Below are positions 5,320-32,000 of a stretch of 32,000 nt of DNA, in pieces. Made by a program: the position numbers and the translations under genes. Position 1 is the stretch's first letter. Every line of letters begins with the position of its first letter. The notes below the pieces were generated by a model. The model was not told where the DNA came from. It saw nothing but the letters and a program-made list of their open reading frames with translations, and made no database searches. The stretch covers positions 41,508 to 73,507 of the forward strand of contig JBAZYK010000010.1 of the NCBI GenBank assembly GCA_041659405.1, written 5' to 3'. Source of the stretch: Candidatus Altimarinota bacterium. GTDB taxonomy: Bacteria > Patescibacteriota > Gracilibacteria > UBA1369.

Positions 5320-6816
5320 TTATGTTGTTTTGTGCCAGGAAAGATCTACTTCGGGATATTTTTTGAGTTCTTCAACCATGATGTTTTGGATTTGGGCGAG
5401 CTTTTCGGCGGTTTCGGCTTCAAAACGAAGAGTTAAATTTGGGCTTGTGTTAGAGCAGCGGATGGCTCCCCAGGCAAGGGTGTCAAAATTAATACGAACA
5501 CCGTCGATGGTGATGCAGTCATATAATTTTGTGAAATGGTCGGTGACTTTTTTGACGATTTCGAATTTGAGATTGTCGGGGCAGTGAGCCTTAAATTCAG
5601 GAGTTGTGAAAAGTGTTGGAAGTCCGTTGAATTGTTCCGAAAAAGATTTTTGTGTTTTTGATAAAATTTCCAGCAATTTGCATGCGGCAAAGAAAGCGTC
5701 ATCGAAGCCGTAATAATCATAATAGGTTTTTCCAAAAAACATGTGGCCGCTGATTTCTCCGCCGAGTGGAGCGTTTAATTCGTGCATGCGGGCTTCAATA
5801 AAAGAGTGGCCGGTTTTGCTCATGACAGGAGTGCCACCTAATCGAGTGATTTCATCAATCAAAATTTTGGAAACTTTTACATCAAAAACAATTTGTTTGG
5901 CTGAGTTTGATGCGAGATTGTTGTTGGGTGTTGTGTCGGAAGCAGATGCCTTTGCAACCTTCGCGCTGTTCACGTTTTCCAATAAATCACGAACGAGGAG
6001 AAGTAATAAATAATCTGCGGAATAATGTTTGCCGTTTTCATCGACTATTCCAACGCGATCGCCATCACCATCAAATCCAATTCCCAAATCTGCTTTGTTG
6101 ATTCTGACTTGTTCTGCCAAGTCCAGCATGTTTTTTTCTTCTTCGGGATTTGCTTCGTGGTGAGGAAAGTTCCCGTCCAAATCGCAATAAAGTTCAATTA
6201 CTTTGCAACCAATGGCTCGCAAAAGTTTGGGAGCGAAGGGCCCTGTGACGCCATTTCCCGCATCTACAACCACTTTTAAAGGTTTAGCGAGTTTGATGCG
6301 TGCTTGAATGTCTTTTAAATAATCATCAAAATTGTCGGATTTGGTGGTGTGCTCGGCCTGTTGCTCATCCTGTCGTTCAAAATCATTCGCTAAAATCAAT
6401 TTTACAATTTCCTGCAACTCATCTCCACAAACAGAGTGCGCGTTTTTGCCGACAATTTTTACGCCATTATATTCCTTGGGATTATGGCTTGCGGTAATGT
6501 TTACGCCGCTGTCCATGCCATAACGACAAACCGCATAATAAATTAGCGGAGAGGTGGAAATTCCCACATCAACAACATCAATTCCGGTGGAAAGCACACC
6601 TTCAATAAAGGCTTTTTGCAAATCGGGGCTGTGCAAGCGGTTATCGCGGCCAACCATCATATTGCGCGTGCCGTATTTGCGCTTCATATATGTTCCTGTG
6701 CCCTGGCCGATCAGTTTGACTGTTTCCGGTGTTAAGTCAGCTATTTCGCCAGCTTCGGGAATGGCAATTCCGCGGATGTCGTATGCACGAAAAATGAGGG
6801 GATTGATAGTTGTCAT
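5320..6816 (-). CDS. Phosphomannomutase/phosphoglucomutase (alpha-D-phosphohexomutase family)
   Basis: Active-site loop TASHNPKEYNGVK, metal loop GFDGDGDR and sugar loop GGEISGH. The TASHNP form favours PMM/PGM over GlmM (SASHNP). Confidence 0.85.
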   Translation of the reverse strand: MTTINPLIFRAYDIRGIAIPEAGEIADLTPETVKLIGQGTGTYMKRKYGTRNMMVGRDNRLHSPDLQKAFIEGVLSTGIDVVDVGISTSPLIYYAVCRYGMDSGVNITASHNPKEYNGVKIVGKNAHSVCGDELQEIVKLILANDFERQDEQQAEHTTKSDNFDDYLKDIQARIKLAKPLKVVVDAGNGVTGPFAPKLLRAIGCKVIELYCDLDGNFPHHEANPEEEKNMLDLAEQVRINKADLGIGFDGDGDRVGIVDENGKHYSADYLLLLLVRDLLENVNSAKVAKASASDTTPNNNLASNSAKQIVFDVKVSKILIDEITRLGGTPVMSKTGHSFIEARMHELNAPLGGEISGHMFFGKTYYDYYGFDDAFFAACKLLEILSKTQKSFSEQFNGLPTLFTTPEFKAHCPDNLKFEIVKKVTDHFTKLYDCITIDGVRINFDTLAWGAIRCSNTSPNLTLRFEAETAEKLAQIQNIMVEELKKYPEVDLSWHKTT

Positions 6817-6823
6817 TATTCAA

Positions 6824-6880
6824 AAAATGAGAGTTTAAAACGGGTATCACCGGTGTGACCCCGGTAAGCCCGCTCATTTT
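6824..6880 (-). terminator. Terminator-like hairpin or possible attenuator immediately upstream of the mutase start codon
   Basis: On the minus-strand RNA: CGGG-C-UUACCGG, loop GGUCACA, CCGGUGA-UA-CCCG, followed by UUUU. The hairpin is nested inside an outer AAAAUGAG/CUCAUUUU pairing that is followed by UUG. It ends about 7 nt before the ATG at 6816. Confidence 0.5.
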
Positions 6881-6941
6881 AGACTAAAGTGGCTTTGGAC
6901 TCAACTGTACTCATGTTGACTCTTAGATTGCCCAATAAATT

Positions 6942-7520
6942 TCATTTTTCGGATTCCTGGATATTTTTTAGGCGATTGGTTGCCTTCCAACTTTGAAGAA
7001 GTTTGGTGACGGATTTTGGCACAAGCTGTTCCCATTTTTGAGCGTTGGCTGAAGGGTCGTTTTTTGAATTGGATTTTGAGCCGGAGAGTGCGGATTTGAG
7101 CATTTCTTCACGCACAATTGTGCTGGAAATTTTGAGATGTTTTTTAATGTCGATGATTTGATATGGCTTTTTAAGCTGTAGATTGGCGTTTTCAAAAAGT
7201 TCCTTAACCACATCGGAACCGGTGTAGATTTTTTGGAATGGTGGTAAATAAAGTTGAACATGCGCAACCCAAAGTGCGTAATTATCAATATTTGGAATTG
7301 TAACAATGTTGTATTTGGAGCGGGGGATTTTGGCTTCTTCAAGAGCAGCTTCCAACATTTGAAAACGTTCGCCGGCTGTGAATGGATTGTTTGGACGAAA
7401 ATTATTTTGAGTGCTGCCGATGGCGATGTAAAGAAAATCGCTTTCTTTGAGCGCTTGTTTTATGGCATCTATATGACCTAAATGAACTGGTTGAAAGCGG
7501 CCGATGAAGAGTGATTTCAT
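6942..7520 (-). CDS. nadM: Nicotinamide-nucleotide adenylyltransferase, archaeal (NadM) type
   Basis: N-terminal GRFQPVHLGH cytidylyltransferase (H/T)xGH motif in the context typical of archaeal-type NMNAT. Ends ISSTIVRE. Lies 11 nt downstream of nadE. Confidence 0.72.
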   Translation of the reverse strand: MKSLFIGRFQPVHLGHIDAIKQALKESDFLYIAIGSTQNNFRPNNPFTAGERFQMLEAALEEAKIPRSKYNIVTIPNIDNYALWVAHVQLYLPPFQKIYTGSDVVKELFENANLQLKKPYQIIDIKKHLKISSTIVREEMLKSALSGSKSNSKNDPSANAQKWEQLVPKSVTKLLQSWKATNRLKNIQESEK

Positions 7521-20951: not shown

Positions 20952-21166
20952 ATTTTTTTAGGGTAAAGTTGTTAAACTTTTTGATGTAAATATTGGCGAA
21001 GCGTACCACTTCTGGACTCTGTGAGCCTATTGTAGCAGAGTTAAAAAATGAGACAAATGAGACAGTGGCGCGACTATCATAGAACATCCCATGGAAATGT
21101 AATTATCGAAAATCCACGTTAGAAACTAATTTTAATGCAGTATCCTCTTGGTGTGTATAAAAAACA

Positions 21167-21195
21167 TTGACATTGATTTTATCATGCAGTATAAG
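21167..21195 (+). promoter_or_regulatory. Putative sigma70-type promoter at the head of the R-M island
   Basis: TTGACA (21167-21172), 17-nt spacer, TATAAG (21190-21195). The ATG at 21202 lies 7 nt after the -10 box. Confidence 0.4.
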
Positions 21196-21201
21196 GGAAG
21201 C

Positions 21202-21774
21202 ATGCACAACAAATCCTTAAAAGAAATTTCGGAAATTATAGCCGGTTTTACCTTTCGTGAAGCGTTAAAAAACGATTCCAATGGTGAAACTCAGGTTTTG
21301 TTGGCAAAAAATATAAATGTCGATGGAACCATAAATTATCCTGAATTAACACGGATCAATCTTGTTGCGCCCCGCACGAATGCATTTGTCGCAAAAAATG
21401 ATGTACTTCTCTCCTCTCGTGGAATTTTTAGAGCAGGAGTTTTTGATAAAGAGGCGAAAAATATTATAGCTGCGTCTTCTCTCTTTATCTTAAGAATCAA
21501 AGACAGTAATGTGATCCCCGAATATTTATCCATTTATTTAAATTCAGAAGCTGGTCAAAATAGTATTCAGAAAATTCTGACCGGCAGTACAATCAAAACC
21601 GTTTTACGGGGAGCTTTAGAGGATTTATCAATTCCGGTTCCGTCATTGGCCGTCCAAAAAACGATTATTGAAATCAGTGTTAATTGGCAAAAAAGACAAA
21701 CCCTTCTAAATCAAAAAATAAATCTCAGCAAGAATATTGCTGAAGGAGCAATAAAACAACTTTTAACAACATAA
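21202..21774 (+). CDS. hsdS: Type I R-M specificity subunit, half-size (single target-recognition domain plus one conserved helix)
   Basis: LKEISEIIAGFTF...SSLFILRIKD...LSIPVPSLAVQKTIIEI is typical TRD plus conserved-region architecture. The track start at 21148 is a TTG. ATGs occur at 21184 and 21202; I chose 21202 because 21184 falls inside the putative promoter spacer. Confidence 0.7.
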   Translation: MHNKSLKEISEIIAGFTFREALKNDSNGETQVLLAKNINVDGTINYPELTRINLVAPRTNAFVAKNDVLLSSRGIFRAGVFDKEAKNIIAASSLFILRIKDSNVIPEYLSIYLNSEAGQNSIQKILTGSTIKTVLRGALEDLSIPVPSLAVQKTIIEISVNWQKRQTLLNQKINLSKNIAEGAIKQLLTT

Positions 21775-21778
21775 AATT

Positions 21779-23287
21779 ATGAATGAAACAACTCAAGAAC
21801 ATTTGAATAAAGTCCTCTGGAATGCTGCGGATTCATCACGCACTTCCCTGGATGCCGCAGTGTACAAAGATTATGTTTTGGCGATGCTTTTCTTTAAGTA
21901 CCTGAGTGATCTTGCAAAAAAGGAGCATCAAAAACTTCAAGAACGGCTTGGTAATGACGAAGATCGCATCCAGGAAAAAATGAAATCCGGGCGTTTTTAT
22001 CTGCCTCCAAATTCTTCCTTTGATTATATTTATTCGATTCATGAAAAAGATAATATTGGGGAGGAAATGAACAAAGTGATGCACCAAATAGAAGAAAACA
22101 ATAAAGAAAAACTTGAAGGTATTTTTAGCGGGCTGGATTTTAATTCTGAATCAACTTTAGGAAGAGTTGAACAGCGTAATAAGATGATACGCCACCTTAT
22201 AAATGATTTTCGCAATATTGATTTAAGTAAAATGGATGACGATGTTATTGGAAACGCTTATATGTACATGATAATGCAATTTGGGTCGCAAGCGGGGAAA
22301 AAAGCGGGAGAATTTTTTACGGTACGTCATGTTGCAAGATTATTGGCAAAACTTGCACAACCAAAGGAAGGAGCTCGTATTTGTGATCCGGCTTGTGGAT
22401 CGGGAGGACTTCTATTATTAGCTGGGGAAGAAATTGAAAAACATGGTTCAAAGAATTACGCCTTATACGGGCAAGAAAGTACGGGTTCTACATATCAATT
22501 GGCGCGCATGAACATGTTTCTGCATGGCAAAGATGGGGCGCGACTTGAATGGGGAGACACTTTAAACAACCCCCTGCTTGTTGAAGATGATCGTCTAATG
22601 AAATTTGATCTGGTAATTGCAAATCCGCCATTCAGTTTAAAAAAATGGGGCGCCGAGAATGCAGAAAATGACAAATATAATCGTTTCTTCCGTGGCATTC
22701 CACCAAAAGATAAAGGCGATTTTGCTTTTATTTCACACATGGTGGAAACAGCCAAAACCAAAAGTGGCAGAGTTGCTGTAATAGTACCGCATGGAGTCTT
22801 GTTTAGGGGAGGAGCAGAAGGTAAAATCAGGCAAGCACTTTTAGAAGAAAACATTATTGATGCCGTAATCGGCCTTCCTGCCGGACTTTTCCAAACTACC
22901 GGCATTCCCGTGGCAATTTTAATTATCGATAGATCACGAGAAGAAGGAGGGGCAAGCGAAAGTAAAAAGGACATATTATTTATAGAAGCATCCAAAGAAT
23001 TCAAGCAGGGTAAAGCCCAAAACACATTAAGCGCAGAAAATATCGAAAAAATCTACAACACGTATGCAAACCGTGAAGAAATCGATAAATTTTCCCGCAA
23101 AGTGATGCCGGAAGAGATTAAAGAAAACGATTACAACCTCAACATTACAAGATATGTGGATACCTTCGTGGAAGAGGAAGAAATTGATATATCAGCAAAC
23201 CTGGCTGAGTTGAAAAAACTCGAACCGGAACTGGAGAGGCTGGAAAAAGAGATGGAGGGGCACTTGAAGACGTTGAATATTTCATAG
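21779..23287 (+). CDS. hsdM: Type I R-M N6-adenine DNA methyltransferase subunit
   Basis: HsdM_N-like LWNAADSSRTSLDAAVYKDYVLAMLFFKYLSD, motif I DPACGSGG and motif IV NPPFS. Confidence 0.9.
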   Translation: MNETTQEHLNKVLWNAADSSRTSLDAAVYKDYVLAMLFFKYLSDLAKKEHQKLQERLGNDEDRIQEKMKSGRFYLPPNSSFDYIYSIHEKDNIGEEMNKVMHQIEENNKEKLEGIFSGLDFNSESTLGRVEQRNKMIRHLINDFRNIDLSKMDDDVIGNAYMYMIMQFGSQAGKKAGEFFTVRHVARLLAKLAQPKEGARICDPACGSGGLLLLAGEEIEKHGSKNYALYGQESTGSTYQLARMNMFLHGKDGARLEWGDTLNNPLLVEDDRLMKFDLVIANPPFSLKKWGAENAENDKYNRFFRGIPPKDKGDFAFISHMVETAKTKSGRVAVIVPHGVLFRGGAEGKIRQALLEENIIDAVIGLPAGLFQTTGIPVAILIIDRSREEGGASESKKDILFIEASKEFKQGKAQNTLSAENIEKIYNTYANREEIDKFSRKVMPEEIKENDYNLNITRYVDTFVEEEEIDISANLAELKKLEPELERLEKEMEGHLKTLNIS

Positions 23288-23295
23288 AGTAAGAT

Positions 23296-23312
23296 GGTTA
23301 CAAAATGTAACC
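23296..23312. promoter_or_regulatory. Inverted repeat GGTTACA-aaa-TGTAACC just after the hsdM stop
   Basis: 7-bp arms with a 3-nt loop, read directly from the sequence. No U-tract follows. Confidence 0.4.
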
Positions 23313-23338
23313 GACTGAAATTATAACTAAACTTAATT

Positions 23339-24778
23339 ATGGATGAATTTATCAAAAAAATACTGGAAATCCCTGAAGAAACCCAGACCCTTGAGTTCAA
23401 AAGATTACAGGGGGATAAAGTCGTTTCTAAAACAGTGGAAACAATAGTATCGATGGCAAATACGGACGGAGGAACCATTATATTTGGCGTTGATGATCCT
23501 GAGAAAACAAAATTAAAAGGTTTAGCTAGGATTTTTGGGATAGAAGAAAATAAAGAACTTTTCGATGCAATAGGCAGAGAAGTTCAAAAGATAATTCCTC
23601 CCATAGGGAATATTTGGAATCCCGAAGTTTTTGAAATTAAAGAGATAGGAAAAAGCATAGCCCTACTAAGAATTAATAAAGGTGTACAGCAATTTCATGC
23701 TTTCAATAATCATGTCTATGTCCGCCAGTTAAAAAGCAATAAAAGACTTACCCCCCAGGAGGTAGTCAAATTTAGCTACGCCAAAGGTTTTGAAAAAGCG
23801 GATAAAGAGCTTGTAGATGTTGATTTCGACTTGCTAAAAACGGATAATTTTGAAAACTGGAGAAAGTCTAGAAATATCGCTCAGGACACACCACCGAAAA
23901 TTCTATTCAACGTTGGACTGGCAAGAAAAAATGAATCTGGACAACTTAAACCGACCCGTGCCGCAGTACTATTGTTTGCTCAATACCCAACCAATTTAAT
24001 GTCAACAAAGTGTGCAATAAGAGTTTTCCAATATTCAGGAACAATCGAAGCTTTCAAGGATGTCCCAAATTTGATTGGAGTTCCCAGAACTATTGATGGT
24101 CCAATCATAAAACAGATTAAAGACGCTCATGAATATGTTTTAACATTATTAAGATCCGGCATTGAAATACACTCGGGATTTGTAACTAAATATCAGATAC
24201 CGGAAAGAGCTATTAAAGAGGCCATTACCAACGCCGTTATTCACAGGGATTATCACATAAAGCGCGACATTGAAATCAGTATTTTTGAAGACCGGGTAGA
24301 AGTATTGAGTCCGGGACTATTTCCATACAATATAACCAAGTCGAATATTGGGTATGTAAGAGCTGATGGGTATAGAAATGATTTACTGGTTAAACATCTT
24401 AGAGAATTCCCAGAACAGCCAAATTTGGATAGAAATGAAGGCGTTCAGGCTATGAGGAATGAAATGAGAGCTCAAAATTTATATGATCCAATTTACTTTA
24501 CGTACCCTATATACGAAGATTCCGTTAAGGTTTTATTGTTAAATGAAAAAAGAGCGAGCGAATGGGAGAAAGTGAAGGATTATTTGATAAAACAAAGATA
24601 TATTACCAATTCGGAAGCTCGGGAAGTTACTGGCATAGTACAACTCTACAAAATGTCGCGTTTATTGAAAAAATGGGTAAATCAAGGGTTATTACTTAAG
24701 ATTTTACCTGAAAATGGTGCTCCTAAGTTTATAAAATATAAATTATCGAATACGGAGGATTTTAACCAAAAAGGTTAA
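23339..24778 (+). CDS. Schlafen/AlbA_2 domain plus HATPase_c_4 domain protein with C-terminal wHTH (COG2865-like)
   Basis: ETQTLEFKR...ANTDGGTIIFGVDD (AlbA_2), ITNAVIHRDY (HATPase_c_4) and a C-terminal ITNSEAREVTG...LLKKWVNQGLL HTH-like segment. Confidence 0.75.
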   Translation: MDEFIKKILEIPEETQTLEFKRLQGDKVVSKTVETIVSMANTDGGTIIFGVDDPEKTKLKGLARIFGIEENKELFDAIGREVQKIIPPIGNIWNPEVFEIKEIGKSIALLRINKGVQQFHAFNNHVYVRQLKSNKRLTPQEVVKFSYAKGFEKADKELVDVDFDLLKTDNFENWRKSRNIAQDTPPKILFNVGLARKNESGQLKPTRAAVLLFAQYPTNLMSTKCAIRVFQYSGTIEAFKDVPNLIGVPRTIDGPIIKQIKDAHEYVLTLLRSGIEIHSGFVTKYQIPERAIKEAITNAVIHRDYHIKRDIEISIFEDRVEVLSPGLFPYNITKSNIGYVRADGYRNDLLVKHLREFPEQPNLDRNEGVQAMRNEMRAQNLYDPIYFTYPIYEDSVKVLLLNEKRASEWEKVKDYLIKQRYITNSEAREVTGIVQLYKMSRLLKKWVNQGLLLKILPENGAPKFIKYKLSNTEDFNQKG

Positions 24779-24854
24779 TTTTACTTGCAATAATCAATGC
24801 AAGTAAAGGCTGACTCCGCATCAGATAAAGCTTTAAGAGGTGTTTTACTTGCAA
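24779..24854. promoter_or_regulatory. Three copies of a TTACTTGCA half-site: a 10-bp inverted repeat plus a 12-bp direct repeat
   Basis: TTTACTTGCA (24780-24789), N8, TGCAAGTAAA (24798-24807). TTTTACTTGCAA occurs at 24779-24790 and again at 24843-24854, 25 nt upstream of the ATG at 24879. Confidence 0.5.
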
Positions 24855-24878
24855 AGTTCATTAATAATTTAAACAACC

Positions 24879-25370
24879 ATGAAAATAAATCTAACCAAAG
24901 CACAGTACGAAAACCTGATTCTTATGAGCAGCTTGACCAGCAGTATTTTTGGAATCCTAAAAGATTCATTGGATGATGAGGAATATTCATCTCAATCAAA
25001 AAAAATGGATGACTTAGAAGAGTATCTACTACAATTCGCTCATGAATTTGACTGCGACGAATTTGTGGAGAAAGATGACGGGAAAAATGTTTTGAAAGAC
25101 GCTCAATATGAAAAAATGACAATGCCAATTCTGGAAGAGTACGGCGAGTGTGAAGCCTTTGATACCCTGGCCAACAAGCTGGCTTGGCGCGATTTTAAAC
25201 GAGATCATTCCCAAGAAGAAATAGAGAAAATGGCCAAAAAGAACGGTGGCTATTTCGGCGTAGCACTACACCCATACGAAAAAAAATATTGGGACGAGTT
25301 TGAGAAAAACGGGTATGAGAGGGTGGAGATTGTGGCTGGAGATGTAGTAAAAAAATTAAATCTTAATTAA
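24879..25370 (+). CDS. Hypothetical acidic protein (163 aa)
   Basis: ATG start. Hand count gives 36 Asp+Glu against 22 Lys+Arg. Its stop overlaps the next start as TAATG. No motif recognised. Confidence 0.6.
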   Translation: MKINLTKAQYENLILMSSLTSSIFGILKDSLDDEEYSSQSKKMDDLEEYLLQFAHEFDCDEFVEKDDGKNVLKDAQYEKMTMPILEEYGECEAFDTLANKLAWRDFKRDHSQEEIEKMAKKNGGYFGVALHPYEKKYWDEFEKNGYERVEIVAGDVVKKLNLN

Positions 25371-26743
25371 TGTTTTTAGAAAAAATGGCAAATTTTAACG
25401 CATTTTTACAGATAATCGAGGGGAAGTTGCATACCATAATTGCACTTGCTGCTGGCCTTATTTTTGAAATTCTTTTTTTTGCTTCAATTGATGGTTTCGT
25501 TGAAAAATTTATCCCGTTAAGAGGGGCACTTTATTTAATATTCATCTTGGGGTGGAGCGCATTTTGGCTTTTTAACAAATCCCACCTTCCTCAAAACAAC
25601 AAGAAAAAAAGAAAAGTAGGTATTGTCATAGCGATATTTTCAGAAAATGAGATTGAAAGACAAAAACTGAAAGCCGACTTTATGTCAAAATTAAAGGAAA
25701 TGTTGTCGCAAGAAAAAATTACGGATTTTGCAGAGATTTTTTTCCTGAAAAATCATTTTGCAGAAGAGATCCTTGAGTCAAATTCTTCAATGCAAAAAAT
25801 CGAGGAAATAAATAAAAAAATAGGAGCCCATTTTTATGTATGGGGAAGAATAAAAAAACGACCGAACGACGAGAAAGGAGAAAAATACTTTTTAACTTTC
25901 CAGGGATATGTATTTCATAACCCGATTACTCGTGAATTAAGCAATGAAATCGCTAAGGACTTTTCGGCTGTCCTGCCAAGAGAAATTAGCTTCCTTGAAA
26001 GAGAATTTCGAGGATTTGAAGCTTCTGCGAAAATATTGCATTTAGCGATAAAATATATTGTTGGATATGCAGCATTCGTTTCTCAAAATCCTATAATTGC
26101 TTTTCGTCTACATGACGGGCTTCGAGAAGCGTTTAATGTATATAGGCCACTCCCAGTTTATTTGCAAGATATAAGGAATAAAATTCCTATACTTATCTCA
26201 GAGGAAACTGGATGGATTGCACGATGGCATTTTCAAAATAACAGGTTAATAGAAGCAAAAGAATTCCTTACTAGGTCTCTTTATGAAAACAATAAGAACT
26301 ATAGCAGTTTGCTTTTTAAAGCTATTATAGATTTTAATGACAATAGAATTCATGATTCTATCAATAGCATAAGCAATGCAGAGAAATATTCGGGTGGAGA
26401 TTTTACGTGGATTTACAGCAAGGCGTTCCACTGTTTTTGGCAAGAAGACTATGCAAAGGTGCTAAAATTATGCCAAAAAATAAAAAATCAATCGCATCCT
26501 AATGAAGAAGCAATATGTAGAGAGATAAGAGAATTTAATTTAAAAATACTAGAAACCGATACTTCAAAGCCGCAATTGTACTTCTGGATTGGATTTTTAA
26601 GTTACTTTAAAGATAAAAATATCCCACAGGCGCTAGAAGATTTTGAAAAATTTGAGCAATTATCCAATGAATCTGTGGCTCTTTTAAAGAATAAATCGAG
26701 TGCGTATTTAACTGAAATCAAACGACAAATGAATCTTAAATAA
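25370..26743 (+). CDS. Hypothetical 2-TM protein (457 aa) with a cytoplasmic alpha/beta-like region and a TPR-like helical C-terminus
   Basis: Hydrophobic helices LHTIIALAAGLIFEILFFASI and GALYLIFILGWSAFWLF, then KKKRKVGIVIAIFSENE. The C-terminal region has repeated amphipathic helices (EAKEFLTRSLYEN..., YAKVLKLCQKI..., IPQALEDFEKFEQL). Confidence 0.65.
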   Translation: MFLEKMANFNAFLQIIEGKLHTIIALAAGLIFEILFFASIDGFVEKFIPLRGALYLIFILGWSAFWLFNKSHLPQNNKKKRKVGIVIAIFSENEIERQKLKADFMSKLKEMLSQEKITDFAEIFFLKNHFAEEILESNSSMQKIEEINKKIGAHFYVWGRIKKRPNDEKGEKYFLTFQGYVFHNPITRELSNEIAKDFSAVLPREISFLEREFRGFEASAKILHLAIKYIVGYAAFVSQNPIIAFRLHDGLREAFNVYRPLPVYLQDIRNKIPILISEETGWIARWHFQNNRLIEAKEFLTRSLYENNKNYSSLLFKAIIDFNDNRIHDSINSISNAEKYSGGDFTWIYSKAFHCFWQEDYAKVLKLCQKIKNQSHPNEEAICREIREFNLKILETDTSKPQLYFWIGFLSYFKDKNIPQALEDFEKFEQLSNESVALLKNKSSAYLTEIKRQMNLK

Positions 26744-26752
26744 TTATTATTC

Positions 26753-27904
26753 ATGCCAAATAAAACAACAATACCAGCTGGTTGGAAAATCGCGAAAGCC
26801 TTTGAGTGTATCGATGTTCGCGACGGTACACATGCTACACCGAAACCAGTAGTAGATGGAATTCCTTTGATTACATCAAAAAATATCATTGAAGGAAAGT
26901 TAACTCTAAGTGATTTTTATAATGTTAGTAATGAGGATGCTCGTGAAATAAATAAAAGATCTCAAGTTGTTATTGGAGATATTTTAATTTCAATGATTGG
27001 CACCGTTGGTGCGACTGCTATCATAAAAAATGAACCTAATTTTGTAGTTAAAAATGTTGGAATTTTCAAAACAGGAAGCAAAGCAATTTTATCTAGTTTT
27101 TTAATAAAGCAATTTCATTCAAAATATTTGCAAAATAAAATTCAGTCACTTTCGAGTGGGGGGATTCAAAAATTTATTTCACTAGGACAACTTAGAAAGC
27201 TGCCAATTTTATTCCCCCCTCTTCCCGAACAGGAAAAAATTGTTGAAGTGCTTGAGGCTTGGGACAGCTATCTTGAAAAACTTTCGAACACGATCAAACT
27301 AAAAAAGAAAATCAAAAAAGGATTGATGCAGAAGTTGTTGGCGGGAAAAATTAGATTGAAAGGATTTAGTGAGTCATGGAAGACAGTTAAGATTGGAGAT
27401 TGTTTAAAGATTAAACATGGAAAGTCACAGAAAGCTGTGGAGGATCCAAATGGGCAATATCCGATATTAGGAACTGGCGGAGAAATGGGTAGAGCTACAG
27501 CATTTCTTTATGATAGACCTTCTGTTTTGATTGGGAGAAAAGGTACAATAAATAAGCCAAAATATATGGAAACTCCATTCTGGACGGTGGATACGCTTTT
27601 TTATAGTGAAGTTAAAGATAATTGTTATCCAAAATATCTCTATTATCATTTCTTGATGATTAATTGGAAACAATACAATGAAGGTTCTGGAATTCCAAGT
27701 CTATCTGCCTCAACTATTTCATCTATAAAAATAGAAATTTCAAAAAGTTTTGAGGAACAAACCGCCATCGCCCAAATCCTAACTACCGCCGACCAGGAAA
27801 TCGAAGCGCTCGAAAAGAAAAAAGCTATCATTGAACAACAGAAAAAATACCTATTAAATAACCTGATTACAGGGAAGATAAGACTTCCGGAATTCATCGA
27901 ATAA
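26753..27904 (+). CDS. hsdS: Type I R-M specificity subunit, full length (two TRDs)
   Basis: IPAGWKIAKAFECIDVRDGTHATP. Central conserved region LPPLPEQEKIVEVLEAWDSYLEKL. C-terminal conserved region EEQTAIAQILTTADQEIEALEKKK...LITGKIRL. Confidence 0.9.
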   Translation: MPNKTTIPAGWKIAKAFECIDVRDGTHATPKPVVDGIPLITSKNIIEGKLTLSDFYNVSNEDAREINKRSQVVIGDILISMIGTVGATAIIKNEPNFVVKNVGIFKTGSKAILSSFLIKQFHSKYLQNKIQSLSSGGIQKFISLGQLRKLPILFPPLPEQEKIVEVLEAWDSYLEKLSNTIKLKKKIKKGLMQKLLAGKIRLKGFSESWKTVKIGDCLKIKHGKSQKAVEDPNGQYPILGTGGEMGRATAFLYDRPSVLIGRKGTINKPKYMETPFWTVDTLFYSEVKDNCYPKYLYYHFLMINWKQYNEGSGIPSLSASTISSIKIEISKSFEEQTAIAQILTTADQEIEALEKKKAIIEQQKKYLLNNLITGKIRLPEFIE

Positions 27905-27909
27905 TCATG

Positions 27910-27937
27910 ATCATTTTGTTAACGTCAACAAAATGAT
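27910..27937. promoter_or_regulatory. Perfect 11-bp inverted repeat ATCATTTTGTT-aacgtc-AACAAAATGAT between hsdS and hsdR
   Basis: Read directly from the sequence. No U-tract follows. Lies 49 nt upstream of the hsdR ATG. Confidence 0.45.
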
Positions 27938-27985
27938 AATAATGCCTATTTAAGCCAAAAACAGTCAATCTAAACCAATAAAACT

Positions 27986-30900
27986 ATGATCCAAGCAAAT
28001 TTTGATGAGGCCAAACAATCCCAGCTGCCTGCGGTGGAGCTGCTTATTAATATGGGCTACAAGTACCTTTCTCCTGCGGAAGTTGATGTGCAGCGCAATA
28101 AGGATCAGTCCAAGTTTATCTTGCAGGATATTGCTTTCAAAAAGCTGATGGAAATCAACTGGTATAACGACATGGGGATTAATTGCCGATTCAGTGAGAA
28201 AAATGTCCATACCGCCATCCAGGAGCTCGAGAATATACCTTTAGAAGGTCTACTTGATACTTCACGCAATGTTTACCATACTTTGATGTCTTCAAGCGGA
28301 AAAACGCTCAAGGAACTTTGTGATGGGAAATTTGAATCTTTTGACTTTAAATTTATCGATTTTGAAAATATTGAGAATAATAACTTCCATGTGACTGTGG
28401 AATTTACCGCTGAAGGAAGGCAAAAAATCAGGCCGGATATTGTGCTTTTTGTGAATGGCATCCCTTTCGCTATCATTGAGAATAAAAAATCAGGCACAAA
28501 AATTGATGAAGCTTTAACACAAATGAATAGAAATCAGGGGCCGGAATATTGCCCAAAGCTTTTTGTTTATCCCCAGCTTTTAATTGGCACGAATAAGACC
28601 GAACTTTTATACGGGACTACCGGAACGCCAAATAAGTTTTATGCGCGTTGGAAAGAAAAGGAAAATCCCAAGTTTGAAGAGAAAATTAATGAACTTATTT
28701 CCAAGCCTATTGAAAGTGCTCTTTATACGCAAATTTGCGCCGATTTAAACGGGGCAACCTTAAATCATGAGCAAATAACCGATAGACTGCCTACGGAGCA
28801 GGATAGAGGCATTGTGGCGCTTTTGGAGCCTAATAGGATGCTTGATCTCGCCAAGAATTTTATTCTTTACGATGCGGGAATTAAAAAGGTTTCCCGTTAT
28901 CAGCAGTATTTTGCCATTCAAAAGAGTTTGAAAACCATTGAAATAGAAAAAACCGGGCCGGTAGGTCTAAGAAGAAATGGTGGTTTGATCTGGCATACGC
29001 AAGGTTCGGGCAAATCTCTGACAATGGTCATGTTTGTCAAAGCCCTGATTGAGGATGAGCGCATTCAAAATCCCCGCATTATTATTGTTACCGATAGAAA
29101 AGACCTGAATAAACAAATCTCGGATACATTTCGGGATTGTAAGCTCAAAAAAGGCGTAGTGGAAGCGACAAGCGGCCAAGAACTTTTAAAACTGATCAAA
29201 GAAAAAAACTTAAATGTTATTACCACTTTGGTTCATAAGTTTGAAAGTGCAAAAAAACACCGTGCCGGGTTTGTTGATGATTCAAAAAACATCTTTGTCC
29301 TGATTGACGAGGCTCATCGAACACAAGGAGGTATGGCCAACGCGGAAATGAATCGAACTATTCCCAACGCCTGCTACATCGGATTTACGGGAACTCCGTT
29401 AATGAAAAAAGAAAAAGCCAGTTGGCTTAAATTTGGTGGATATATAGATAAATATACGATTGATGATGCTTTAAGTGATGGGGTGATTCTGCCGCTAATT
29501 TATGAAGGTCGTTATGTGGAATTAACCCAAAACAAGGAACAAATTGATCGACAAGTTGATCGCATTACAAAAGAGTTGAATCAGGAGCAAAGGCGTGAAC
29601 TTCAAAAATTTGTGGATAAACGCGTTATTCGCAATAATCCGCAAAGAATTGCGGAAATCGCTTACGATATTCAGGAACATTATATTAGAACATTCCAGGG
29701 AACAGGGCTGAAAGCTCAAATTGTTGCTCCTTCAAAATATTCAGCGATTTTATTCCAAAGATTTTTTGAAAGTTTTGGAGAGAAAATCAATACCGCGGTG
29801 ATAATTTCCGAAACTACAACGGATGAGGACGAAAAGGATACGCATAAAAAAGAGGTTTCTGACTTTATTAAAGCGATAAATCACAATTTTAGAGATCTGG
29901 CTTCTTACGAGAAACAAAAGATCAACAGCTTTAAAAAAGGTGATGGCGGGGTTGAAATTTTGATTGTTGTGGACAAACTGCTTACCGGCTTTGATTCACC
30001 GAGAAACACGGTTCTTTATTTGGCCAAAGACCTCAAAGATCATAACTTGCTCCAGGCAATCGCCAGAGTGAATCGAATCTATGAGAATAAAAATATAAAA
30101 TTTCCAAAAACGGCAGGTTTTATCATTGATTATTCCGAAAATGCAAAAAACATCGATACGGCAATGAAATTGTTTGGAAATTATGATGATGCAGACATTA
30201 AAAACACTTTGATTGATGTAATAGCTAAAAAAGTTGAACTTGAATCCAGTTATGAGGCGTTGCACGAGATGTTCAAGGAACTTAAAGGTTCAAAAGACGA
30301 TGAAGCTTATATTCAAAAGTTGGCTGATGAACAGGAACGCACACTTTTTTATAAAGCATTGAACACATTTATACGGCAATTTAATGAATGCCTTGCTCTT
30401 CAGGACTTTTCAATCGGTTTTCCTCATCTGGATACATACAAAATGGATCTTAAAAAGTTTTTGGAACTTAGGAAAACGGCACATCTGAAATATGCCGATA
30501 CGGACGACTTTTCCGAGTATAAATTGCAGCTCGTTAAAATCCTGGACCAATTCATTGATGCAAAAGAAGTTGAAGTGCTGACAAAGCAAATCAATATTAA
30601 TGATGCAGAGGCATTTGCCGAGGCTATAGCCAATTTGGGCTCAAATAAGTCAAAGGCGGAAGCAATAGCGGCACAAATTCAAAGAACAATTACGGAAGAA
30701 GCAGAGAAAGATCCTGAATTCTATAATCGTTTTTCGGAAAAGGTTAAAAAGCTTTTAGAGAAATTAAGAGAAGGGAAAATTGCCGATATTGAAGCCTTAA
30801 ATGGAATCAAAGAAATTAAATCACAAGTATTAGCTAAAGAAGATGATGAAATTCCTGCAAAAATTCGTGAGAAAACCGGTGCGGATATTTTTTATAGGAA

Positions 30901-31171
30901 TCTAAAAGACATTCTGCTGAGATACAATGTGGGGGAAGAAGAGATTGTTGATATTATTTTGGACATATTCAACATTCTGAAAGCTGAAACGATTGTAGAT
31001 TGGCATAAAAATAACGAGGTCAAAAGAGTCATTACGAACAAACTGGACGATTACCTATATGACATCGTAAAGCTAAAAAAGGGCGTTGATCTGAGTAATG
31101 AGGATTTACAAGGTCTTCTTTCAACAATTATTGATCTTGCCTGTAATAACAATGGAATTTTCCAAGCATGA
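27986..31171 (+). CDS. hsdR: Type I restriction enzyme R subunit (endonuclease/translocase)
   Basis: N-terminal PD-(D/E)xK region RPDIVLFVNGIPFAIIENKK, SF2 motif I HTQGSGKSLTM, motif II LIDEAHRTQ, FTGTP and QAIARVNR. Confidence 0.92.
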   Translation: MIQANFDEAKQSQLPAVELLINMGYKYLSPAEVDVQRNKDQSKFILQDIAFKKLMEINWYNDMGINCRFSEKNVHTAIQELENIPLEGLLDTSRNVYHTLMSSSGKTLKELCDGKFESFDFKFIDFENIENNNFHVTVEFTAEGRQKIRPDIVLFVNGIPFAIIENKKSGTKIDEALTQMNRNQGPEYCPKLFVYPQLLIGTNKTELLYGTTGTPNKFYARWKEKENPKFEEKINELISKPIESALYTQICADLNGATLNHEQITDRLPTEQDRGIVALLEPNRMLDLAKNFILYDAGIKKVSRYQQYFAIQKSLKTIEIEKTGPVGLRRNGGLIWHTQGSGKSLTMVMFVKALIEDERIQNPRIIIVTDRKDLNKQISDTFRDCKLKKGVVEATSGQELLKLIKEKNLNVITTLVHKFESAKKHRAGFVDDSKNIFVLIDEAHRTQGGMANAEMNRTIPNACYIGFTGTPLMKKEKASWLKFGGYIDKYTIDDALSDGVILPLIYEGRYVELTQNKEQIDRQVDRITKELNQEQRRELQKFVDKRVIRNNPQRIAEIAYDIQEHYIRTFQGTGLKAQIVAPSKYSAILFQRFFESFGEKINTAVIISETTTDEDEKDTHKKEVSDFIKAINHNFRDLASYEKQKINSFKKGDGGVEILIVVDKLLTGFDSPRNTVLYLAKDLKDHNLLQAIARVNRIYENKNIKFPKTAGFIIDYSENAKNIDTAMKLFGNYDDADIKNTLIDVIAKKVELESSYEALHEMFKELKGSKDDEAYIQKLADEQERTLFYKALNTFIRQFNECLALQDFSIGFPHLDTYKMDLKKFLELRKTAHLKYADTDDFSEYKLQLVKILDQFIDAKEVEVLTKQININDAEAFAEAIANLGSNKSKAEAIAAQIQRTITEEAEKDPEFYNRFSEKVKKLLEKLREGKIADIEALNGIKEIKSQVLAKEDDEIPAKIREKTGADIFYRNLKDILLRYNVGEEEIVDIILDIFNILKAETIVDWHKNNEVKRVITNKLDDYLYDIVKLKKGVDLSNEDLQGLLSTIIDLACNNNGIFQA

Positions 31172-31872
31172 AAATAAATATATTTAAATTTGGGAAATAT
31201 TCATACGAGTACTATTTGGTGCTGCAGGATCGTAAAACCGTTGCACTAACGGTTCAACCAAGCTTAAATATTATTTTAAAATGCCCATTTGGGTATGATG
31301 CTGCTAAAATTGAAAGATTTTTAAAAAGAAAATGGCTATGGCTAGAGAAACAAGTGCAGTATTTTAGAAAATACAGGAAGGATACAAGTAAAAAAGAATA
31401 TGTTTCGGGCGAAAGTTTTTTATACTTGGGACGACAATATAAGCTTTTGATAAAAGCAGGCAAGAGTCCAGAAGTTAGGCTTGAGAAAGGGAAAATTACG
31501 GTATTTACAAAACAAATTTCTCAAGATCGAACCGCAAACAAAAAACTTCTTGATAAGTGGTTTGAGGAACGAACCAAATCAGTCCTTACGTTACGATTTA
31601 AAGAGATGATAAGAAAATTTAACTATGACTTCGTTCCTCACCTTACGACCAGAAAAATGCCAAAACGATGGGGCAGCTATTTATCAAGTAAAAAAATCAT
31701 CCTAAACCCATTGTTGATAAGGGCATCCAAGGATTGCATCGATTACGTCATTGTGCACGAGCTATGCCACATGAAATACAAGCATCACGATAAGAATTTC
31801 TTTAAATTGCAGGAGTCAATCATCCCTAATTGGAAAGGAGTAAAAGAGAAACTTGAATTGAGATTTTTGTAA
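31168..31872 (+). CDS. DUF45 / YgjP-like HExxH metallopeptidase
   Basis: RWGSY...VIVHELCHMKYKHHDKNF (HExxH). 4-nt ATGA overlap with the hsdR stop. This family often follows hsdR. Confidence 0.8.
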   Translation: MKINIFKFGKYSYEYYLVLQDRKTVALTVQPSLNIILKCPFGYDAAKIERFLKRKWLWLEKQVQYFRKYRKDTSKKEYVSGESFLYLGRQYKLLIKAGKSPEVRLEKGKITVFTKQISQDRTANKKLLDKWFEERTKSVLTLRFKEMIRKFNYDFVPHLTTRKMPKRWGSYLSSKKIILNPLLIRASKDCIDYVIVHELCHMKYKHHDKNFFKLQESIIPNWKGVKEKLELRFL

Positions 31873-31879
31873 AATATAA

Positions 31880-32000
31880 TGGTCCCGCAAAATCGGACAG
31901 AAAAATGGGGTATGCTAAGAGAGGTTTTTAACCCCAAAAATTATGCCAAAAGGTATACGGAAACAGTACGATGGAGCGTTCAAACTTAAAGTTATCCTGG
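31880..32000 (+). mobile_element. Possible left end of an IS3-family insertion sequence (terminal TG... plus the start of an OrfA-like transposase), truncated by the window edge
   Basis: The ATG at 31943 opens MPKGIRKQYDGAFKLKVIL, which resembles IS3-family OrfA N-termini (basic patch, then F-K-x-x-V). TGGTCCCGCAAAATCGGACAG at 31880 resembles TG-initiated IS3 terminal repeats. Only 19 codons are visible. Confidence 0.3.

Follow-up and report, generated by a model that had tools for sequence, protein, structure and literature searches.

Genes A and B in a Type I restriction-modification operon of a Candidatus Altimarinota bacterium: adjacent cargo genes with separate distributions

We describe here a 32,000-nucleotide stretch of contig JBAZYK010000010.1 from a Candidatus Altimarinota bacterium (the window), which contains a Type I restriction-modification (R-M) operon and, within it, two adjacent open reading frames (ORFs), gene A (163 amino acids) and gene B (457 amino acids). 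We regard it as highly probable that A and B are independent cargo genes embedded in the R-M operon and do not constitute a pair. The gene order on the + strand is a half-size hsdS, hsdM, a gene for a Schlafen-like protein, A, B, a full-length hsdS, hsdR and a gene for a YgjP-like peptidase. ORF calls and Pfam searches agree with a preliminary description of this DNA as to the coordinates of A and B and their placement between hsdM and the Schlafen-like gene on one side and hsdS and hsdR on the other. Its statement that neither ORF belongs to a recognisable family also stands, as there is no above-threshold Pfam match for either, and no match at all in NCBIfam, PADLOC or PHROGs. The two genes are uncatalogued in PADLOC v2, matching none of its models, those for PDCs included.

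The overall reading that we favour, and consider reasonably probable, is that these are two unrelated, independently inherited cargo genes of a mobile Type I R-M operon of the candidate phyla radiation (CPR), with B acting as a second-line or guard factor. For B taken by itself, the proposal that it is a single-gene, R-M-linked second-line or guard factor is a tentative one. For A we can only guess at a role, most likely in modulating either the Type I methylase/restriction complex or the cargo genes around it. In both cases it is the biochemical activity and the anti-phage role that we infer.

Distribution of genes A and B in related loci

The preliminary description presented A and B as a co-travelling, translationally coupled module. 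We compared the window with related loci (L001–L095), comprising loci with B homologues (L001–L007, L014–L042 and L086–L090) and loci with A homologues (42 metagenome loci together with L008–L013, L085 and L091–L095). The B loci compared include 29 species-representative genome loci, recovered by a pattern-seeded scan of 185,579 species genomes and thus a lower bound, and three contexts from contig look-ups. The survey of gene neighbourhoods indicates that the two genes do not travel together, with no co-occurrence seen in either direction outside this contig. No A homologue was found in B loci L001–L007 and L014–L042 (phmmer and hmmsearch with an A profile) or in L086–L090 (gene lists and checks). 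Reciprocally, hmmsearch with a B profile found no B homologue in the 42 metagenome A loci, and there is none among the called genes of L008–L013, L085 and L091–L095.

The nearest relatives of each gene also have other neighbours. The closest relative of A (82% identical) is in L085, where the order is half-hsdS, hsdM, Bro-N, A, PycC, PycTM and hsdS. The closest relatives of B (70–72% identical) are in L086 and L087, which retain the B-hsdS(-hsdR) arrangement and have a different gene upstream, PDC-S21/DUF4917 in the case of L087. A further example is L011, in which A is in a very similar operon (hsdM phmmer E-value 1e-246), with an unrelated 460-amino acid protein in the place of B. We considered whether this protein, encoded immediately before hsdS, could be a B homologue, and rejected it (20% identity, misaligned). 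Genes located 5′ of B in L006 (179 amino acids) and L001 (338 amino acids) were likewise rejected as divergent forms of A (BLASTP E-values ≥0.4). The adjacency and co-transcription of A and B in the window appear to be a local accident of cassette shuffling, and not the mark of a two-component system.

The junction of the two genes warrants comment. The stop codon of A (TAA) and the first ATG of B share one base, forming the TAATG at 25368–25372 on which the proposed coupling was based. The overlap is present, but the starts of the nearest B homologues align downstream of it; the three closest begin MENLKA... and align to the second ATG of B (M6; 25385), which is 14 nt past the A stop and has a AAAAAATGG context in both the window and L087. 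Judging from these alignments, the true start of B may be the second ATG and not the one in the overlap. Elsewhere, B is spaced 2–9 nt from, or overlaps, a variety of neighbours including hsdS, hsdR, and genes for a Type II restriction endonuclease (REase), a DUF4145 protein and TyrRS. Because B is equally tight to unrelated genes in these compact operons, its close spacing to A is no sign of a partnership.

An operator-like repeat array was also reported to precede A. There are exactly three exact copies of TTTACTTGCA in the window, all within the array interval given in Table 1. The copies at 24780–24789 (+) and 24798–24807 (−) are perfect inverted repeats of each other over 10 bp, separated by 8 nt. 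The remaining copy (24844–24853, +) is a direct repeat located 25 nt before the ATG of A. No T-run follows the stem, and the hairpin is absent from the terminator scan list. The array might serve as an operator or mark a junction between cassettes. The repeats are real and exact and do precede A, but they are not conserved, as none of the related loci scanned (L001–L087) has two or more copies of TTTACTTGCA.

These same features (a common strand, adjacency, the TAATG junction and the array ahead of A), together with the juxtaposition of a small acidic protein and a basic, membrane-anchored one, are what would be expected if A and B formed a translationally coupled module for defence, or one resembling a toxin-antitoxin pair, in which A would be the acidic regulator or antitoxin and B the membrane effector, the module as a whole possibly being licensed by the R-M complex. 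We consider such a module highly improbable, in view of the lack of co-occurrence in the fetched A and B loci, nearest relatives included, the probable start of B at its second ATG and its equally tight spacing to any upstream gene, and the fact that the array is not conserved in the loci scanned. There is a general lesson here, in that neighbouring genes of compact CPR operons are not to be read as a functional pair merely because the stop of one overlaps the start of the next.

Gene B and its association with restriction-modification genes

The layout predicted for B in the preliminary description, with two transmembrane (TM) helices, a basic patch, a beta-alpha segment and tetratricopeptide repeat (TPR)-like helices, is well supported by hydropathy, an AlphaFold2 (AF2) model and Foldseek searches. 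B is basic overall (pI 8.9), and has hydrophobic 19-residue segments (Kyte-Doolittle) at residues ~22–40 and 50–68, followed by the basic sequence NNKKKRK. Because this basic sequence follows the hairpin, the positive-inside rule predicts that the bulk of B is cytoplasmic. The AF2 model (pLDDT 88.7) has an N-terminal helix, two long hydrophobic helices, an alpha/beta domain (residues 83–209) and twelve helices (residues 213–453). The order of elements in the alpha/beta domain is b1-a1-b2-a2-a3-b3-b4 (hairpin)-a4-b5, which may resemble a flavodoxin-like or anticodon-binding-domain-like topology, a similarity that we mention as a lead only. A profile of this domain has no PDB sequence match at E-values ≤10, and at the sequence level the domain matches no described family.

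The TPR-like helices are the most confidently modelled part of B (pLDDT ~85–97), and the solenoid is conserved and rich in conserved aromatic residues. Foldseek matches these helices to a consensus TPR (8chy; E-value 8e-4, probability 1.00), as well as to 9qhc, OGT, APC3 and IFIT. The Pfam TPR_2 score for the window B is 17.4 bits, under the 27-bit cut-off, and two relatives (P0214 and P0207) score 32.4 and 32.8 bits respectively. As modelled, the C-terminal part of B has the properties of a TPR solenoid.

A total of 105 B homologues were identified at E-values ≤1e-3, mostly 444–472 amino acids long and 37–73% identical, and every named one is from Patescibacteria/CPR. A profile of the alpha/beta domain matches 719 clusters at E-values ≤1e-3 among 1.84 billion representatives, giving a family size of at least 719 clusters (at 50% identity). 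Nearly all of these are 400–490 amino acids long with the domain at approximately residues 70–215. The architecture is essentially fixed, and this profile search of the 1.84 billion representatives found essentially no other. We note that the B-carrying contigs L016, L017, L020, L024, L026, L027, L037, L039 and L042 are from metagenome-assembled genomes, several of which are labelled as Gammaproteobacteria, Methanoregula, Verrucomicrobia, Brocadiaceae or Gemmatimonas. The B proteins of these oddly labelled contigs are 23–58% identical to the CPR ones. Mislabelling or contamination of the bins would explain this, as would an occasional presence of B outside CPR.

We evaluated conservation by aligning 116 full-length but distant relatives, which share a median of 27% identity with the window B. 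The alpha/beta domain residues conserved in at least 85% of these are G84, D103, H154, G159, R164, V181 and H183, with H183 present in 99%. Two hydrophobic segments are predicted in 84 of the relatives, one in 19, and none in the remaining 13, which are ~410 amino acids long. Because of this TM-less subfamily, the alpha/beta and TPR unit appears to be the conserved core of B, with the hairpin as an anchor. Two soluble relatives of this type lacking the hairpin are encoded in L088 (7572–9236) and L090 (8001–9260). In L088, two small Cys-rich (zinc-ribbon-like) ORFs precede the B relative, one with a 4-nt overlap, and a 914-amino acid SIR2_2 protein is encoded ~6 kb away; in L090 the B relative follows ftsZ. 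We considered whether a separate small ORF ahead of the TM-less relatives might supply the hairpin, and rejected this, as the two such ORFs of L088 encode Cys-rich soluble peptides.

B is found within or next to R-M operons in many independent lineages. The order hsdM-hsdS-B-hsdR is present in eight independent operons (L024–L028, L034, L035 and L037), and there are several other arrangements. In L014, B follows hsdR-hsdM-hsdS, and in L018 it follows hsdR-hsdM/S-DUF4145. It also follows an Mrr_cat endonuclease gene (L016), and a Type II methylase with its REase (PADLOC E-value 6e-72; L020). Other neighbours include C5 methylase genes with or without Vsr (L001, L004 and L017) and a LexA-fused N4/N6 methylase gene (L019), and in L029 an MmeI-like (Type IIL-like) enzyme is encoded 4.9 kb away. 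Overall, a recognised R-M gene is within 5 kb of B in 18 of 29 non-redundant loci and directly adjacent in 11. The proportion of bases covered by R-M genes falls with distance from B, from 39% (0–2.5 kb) to 12% (2.5–5 kb) and 0% (5–10 kb), in a near-versus-far comparison that is internal to these loci, with an R-M query set built from the same loci and not set against a genome-wide background.

If B is a guard or second-line factor, its alpha/beta domain, with a putative site formed by D103, H154, R164 and H183, would be a catalytic or ligand-binding effector. The conserved, aromatic-rich TPR would bind a conserved ligand or partner and not a fast-evolving phage protein, and the hairpin would serve only to hold B against the inner side of the membrane, close to where DNA comes in. 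A killing role for the hairpin itself is unlikely, as 13 of the 116 relatives do without it. A catalytic alpha/beta domain would represent a new effector chemistry.

Several observations weigh against our overall reading. No homology ties A or B to a characterised activity, and strong conservation of a TPR is unusual for a phage-sensing domain. The locus scans were pattern-seeded and metagenome contigs are short, which could hide some A-B co-occurrence, and the distance comparison has the internal character described above. Finally, about a third of the B loci have no recognised R-M gene nearby (in four of these R-M-negative loci the contig is cut at B itself), and in some B is next to housekeeping genes, namely those for TyrRS (L021), ATP synthase (atpD; L031) and PspC (L030), or after ftsZ (L090).

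These housekeeping contexts, and the large size and good conservation of the family, are also what an ordinary CPR membrane or housekeeping protein would give, its proximity to R-M genes being coincidental. This seems most unlikely, with R-M coverage dropping as steeply as it does, B inserted inside operons of several unrelated R-M types in contexts that vary between close relatives, and only 29 loci (the lower bound) in so large a set of species genomes.

The main rival to a guard function is that B is a non-immune R-M accessory or scaffold protein, with the TPR as a dock, whose task would be to tether, assemble or regulate restriction complexes at the cytoplasmic membrane, such as at sites of DNA entry. 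Consistent with this are the position of B within operons, between hsdS and hsdR and 2–9 nt from its neighbours or overlapping them, the high conservation of the TPR, expected for a conserved partner, and the predicted cytoplasmic juxtamembrane topology. Type I enzymes reportedly can associate with the membrane, as in work on EcoKI. In such a role B would connect restriction with the place on the membrane through which DNA enters. Nonetheless, B accompanies unrelated R-M types (several Type I families, Type II, Mrr, and a C5 methylase with an REase) that have no common subunit, some members lack the hairpin, some loci lack a nearby R-M gene, and the conserved D/H/R/H cluster seems more typical of an active site or ligand site than of a scaffold protein. 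We therefore consider the tether unlikely, and retain the guard or second-line role as the tentative assignment for B.

CPR/Patescibacteria account for much of bacterial diversity. CRISPR is absent from most of them, and they reportedly depend on R-M and trade defence genes extensively (PMC12455944; PMC12259885). The B family, with its recurrent placement in R-M operons of several types and no annotation of its clusters beyond 'TPR', could be a layer of immunity or of R-M regulation so far missed in these bacteria, a proposal that is open to experiment. A much broader view, to which we give little weight, is that B is a widespread single-gene immune or guard family, mainly of CPR, that plugs into any R-M type, as a novel type of membrane-held D-H-R-H enzyme gated by its TPR and acting when restriction fails or foreign DNA enters. 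B would then be the main second-line defence of bacteria largely without CRISPR, and A a second, independent Type I regulator of unseen fold.

The gene A family

A contains 36 acidic (D+E) and 22 basic (K+R) residues, and has a net charge of −14 (pI 4.65), confirming the earlier hand count of about −14. The charge ranges from −8 to −21 across nine sampled family members. Homologue searches gave 74 matches with the single query and 222 with a profile, and the family has been seen only in CPR records. Among the 120 profile matches listed, all are stand-alone proteins of 138–180 amino acids and there are no fusions. The MKINLTK N-terminus is kept in A homologues, and because of this conservation we conclude that the 163-amino acid start is correct and that the 148-amino acid JGI call is wrong. 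The invariant residues are L101, D105, F106, E134, Y137 and E140. The AF2 model (pLDDT 92.0) is a helical bundle with one beta-hairpin at residues 63–72, for which Foldseek gives no significant match (best E-values of 0.79 in PDB and 1.2 in the BFVD viral structures). The preliminary description likened A to DNA mimics in charge only; the charge is as stated, but Foldseek recovers neither ArdA nor Ocr, nor any other structure of the PDB or viral sets. No homologues of A or B were found in a viral-contig collection, GenBank phage records or PLSDB plasmids.

The most common position of A is directly after hsdM (L051, L057 and L091–L094) or one gene later (the window, L011, L044, L046, L055, L066 and L085). 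It is also found beside genes for DpnI and an MmeI-like enzyme, and L008 has A together with KilA-N and DpnI. In some loci A is away from Type I genes, for example with a 2-hydroxyacid dehydrogenase/ACT-domain gene (L073/L074) or pilin-like genes (L078/L081). Within 100 nt upstream of A there may be genes for KilA-N (with a 4-nt overlap), Bro-N, RhuM, RhuM-N+Fic, Fic, PemK or AbiEii proteins, and in one context an NYN gene is ~670 nt upstream.

One form that modulation by A could take is that of an endogenous Type I modulator, either a DNA mimic or an HsdM-binding protein, that tempers restriction or methylation (e.g. during establishment in a new host), with B as unrelated cargo. The position after hsdM, the strong acidity of the family, and its small (~150 amino acid) stand-alone members all point in this direction. 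This specific form is nevertheless rather doubtful, given the lack of structural similarity to ArdA, Ocr or other PDB or viral structures, the loci in which A is away from Type I genes (L008, L073/L074 and L078/L081), and its frequent pairing with Bro-N, KilA-N, RhuM or Fic proteins instead.

In another explanation, A is a promiscuous small antitoxin-like or adaptor partner of Bro-N, KilA-N, RhuM, Fic, PemK, AbiEii and NYN proteins, and is beside B by chance. A is small and acidic, as such a partner might be, and lies close downstream of these toxin-like genes, more distantly for NYN. However, there are many loci in which A has no toxin-like neighbour, such as those with A directly after hsdM, and PemK and AbiEii are usually paired with cognate antitoxins of their own. 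We think this quite improbable, and our best guess for A is still the broader one, that it modulates the Type I complex or adjacent cargo genes.

Two additional features of the A loci are of interest. First, a Bro-N, KilA-N, RhuM, RhuM-N+Fic or Fic gene is upstream of A in L008, L044, L055, L064, L061, L071 and L085, and downstream in L048. The RhuM and RhuM-N+Fic proteins have an N-terminal region in common, to which the Bro-N protein of L085 has a weak match (E-value 6e-4). The Bro-N/KilA-N/RhuM/Fic proteins may be a genuine partner class for A. Second, a PRiA4_ORF3-like protein of ~148 amino acids is encoded directly downstream of A in L043 (1454–1891), L057 (2084–2530) and L091 (6480–6926), and the L043 and L057 copies are 67% identical.

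The operon, its cargo slot and related systems

The gap between hsdM and hsdS in this operon type is a variable cargo slot, of which A and B are two more occupants. The Schlafen-like gene is the first cargo gene of the slot in the window, and has a homologue in the same operon type in L011 (10191–11621), where the slot also contains PD-Lambda-2_B/RmrA-like and HigB-like genes. In L085, a complete Pycsar system (5879–7106; PycC E-value 6e-52, PycTM 5e-31) is located between hsdM and hsdS, directly after the A homologue. The R-M island (21100–31900) has a GC content of 0.361, compared to 0.419 for the rest of the window (1–21000), with B the lowest at 0.328, which is consistent with horizontal acquisition. 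Even across records that bear the names of different CPR lineages, B members have 54–58% identity to the window B. No tRNA gene was found in the window.

Table 1. Features of the R-M operon in the window
Feature	Position	Strand	Basis
Half-size hsdS, single target-recognition domain	21148..21774	+	Pfam Methylase_S 1.6e-10; PADLOC Specificity_I 3e-20
hsdM, Type I methyltransferase subunit	21779..23287	+	Pfam N6_Mtase 1.5e-101; HsdM_N 1e-23
Schlafen-like AlbA_2 + HATPase_c_4 protein	23339..24778	+	Pfam SLFN_AlbA_2 1.9e-16; HATPase_c_4 4.7e-11; PADLOC pAgo-associated models 1.9e-23
Triple TTTACTTGCA repeat array	24780..24853		Exact copies; 100-nt gap before A
Gene A, acidic 163-amino acid helical protein	24879..25370	+	ORF call; homologues; AF2 model
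Gene B, membrane hairpin + alpha/beta domain + TPR	25370..26743	+	457 amino acids from first ATG; 452 if second ATG (25385)
B residues ~22–68, two-helix hydrophobic hairpin	25433..25573	+	Kyte-Doolittle 19-mers; AF2 helices 23–39, 49–71
B residues 83–212, alpha/beta domain	25616..26005	+	AF2 secondary structure
B residues 213–457, linker helix then TPR-like solenoid	26006..26740	+	AF2; Foldseek
Full-length hsdS, two target-recognition domains	26753..27904	+	Pfam Methylase_S 3.9e-35, two stretches
hsdR, Type I restriction subunit, 1061 amino acids	27986..31171	+	ORF; L011 homologue matches at phmmer 6e-236
YgjP-like metallopeptidase	31168..31872	+	Pfam YgjP-like 1.2e-49; start overlaps hsdR stop (ATGA)

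The frame around the slot has several features of its own. A half-hsdS is present 5′ of hsdM in three related operons (the window, L011 4791–5357 and L085 2434–3006) and is part of the conserved R-M frame; its presence beside a full downstream hsdS suggests two alternative specificity subunits. The L011 homologue of hsdR has HSDR_N, ResIII, SWI2_SNF2 and T1R_D3-like domains. YgjP-like (DUF45/SprT/WLM-related) homologues are directly after hsdR in L024, L026 and L028, which are unrelated CPR Type I operons. Because TGA serves as the hsdR stop in the ATGA overlap, the standard genetic code applies here despite the 'Gracilibacteria' label. An Argonaute gene was not detected to accompany the matches of the Schlafen-like gene to pAgo-associated models.

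Accessory genes embedded in R-M operons are known as a kind, and the families of A and B are undescribed, without a model in the four libraries searched. Individual aspects of each protein can be compared with characterised systems. A is similar to ArdA and Ocr in its comparable size, its strong acidity and a link to Type I R-M. It differs in its predicted structure, for which Foldseek finds neither, and in being host-encoded inside an R-M operon and absent from the phage, plasmid and viral-contig collections searched. B has an N-terminal two-helix hairpin in a defence context, as do PycTM, the CBASS 2TM effectors and SLATT proteins, and PycTM occupies the homologous slot in L085. However, B has no PADLOC or Pfam match to 2TM effectors in the same test in which the L085 PycTM scores 5e-31, and unlike these effectors it has ~380 further cytoplasmic residues and no partner cyclase. 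The TPR solenoid is common to IFIT proteins, the TPR arms of STAND/Avs proteins and Rap/AimR-type receptors (with weak Foldseek matches to IFIT1, IFIT5 and Rap; E-values ~1e-2). These matches reflect generic TPR similarity, and unlike the TPR sensors B lacks an NTPase or helix-turn-helix output domain and its TPR is conserved and not diversifying.

The closest parallels are with embedded genes. PrrC is the textbook guardian, triggered by inhibition of the R-M enzyme (PMC12707154), and PrrC/RloC resemble B in being encoded by a single accessory gene between the hsd genes of a Type I operon (in the window, L024–L028, L034, L035 and L037). B departs from them in lacking an ABC-type ATPase or anticodon-nuclease domain and any PrrC, PADLOC, Pfam or NCBIfam match, and in being mostly membrane-anchored and also beside Type II, Type IV and Type IIL genes. 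Payne et al. (2024) described 3,231 families, with 17,432 non-redundant genes, that lie within BREX, DISARM or Type I R-M systems (bioRxiv 10.1101/2024.01.29.577857). A gene that interrupts an immune operon of several genes is often a defence in its own right, a principle referred to as 'guilt-by-embedding' (bioRxiv 10.1101/2024.01.29.577857; PMC11411939). The HECs and PDCs of Payne et al., and TgvAB of Vibrio cholerae VPI-2, share the same embedding logic as A and B, and PDC-S21 and a complete Pycsar fill the same slot in relatives. TgvAB requires both of its genes, whereas A and B do not travel together, and unlike the known embedded candidates A and B have no PADLOC v2 match and are almost only in CPR metagenome assemblies. 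Both genes are nonetheless recurrently embedded in defence operons, and with PrrC and TgvAB as precedents, A and B as cargo fit guilt-by-embedding.

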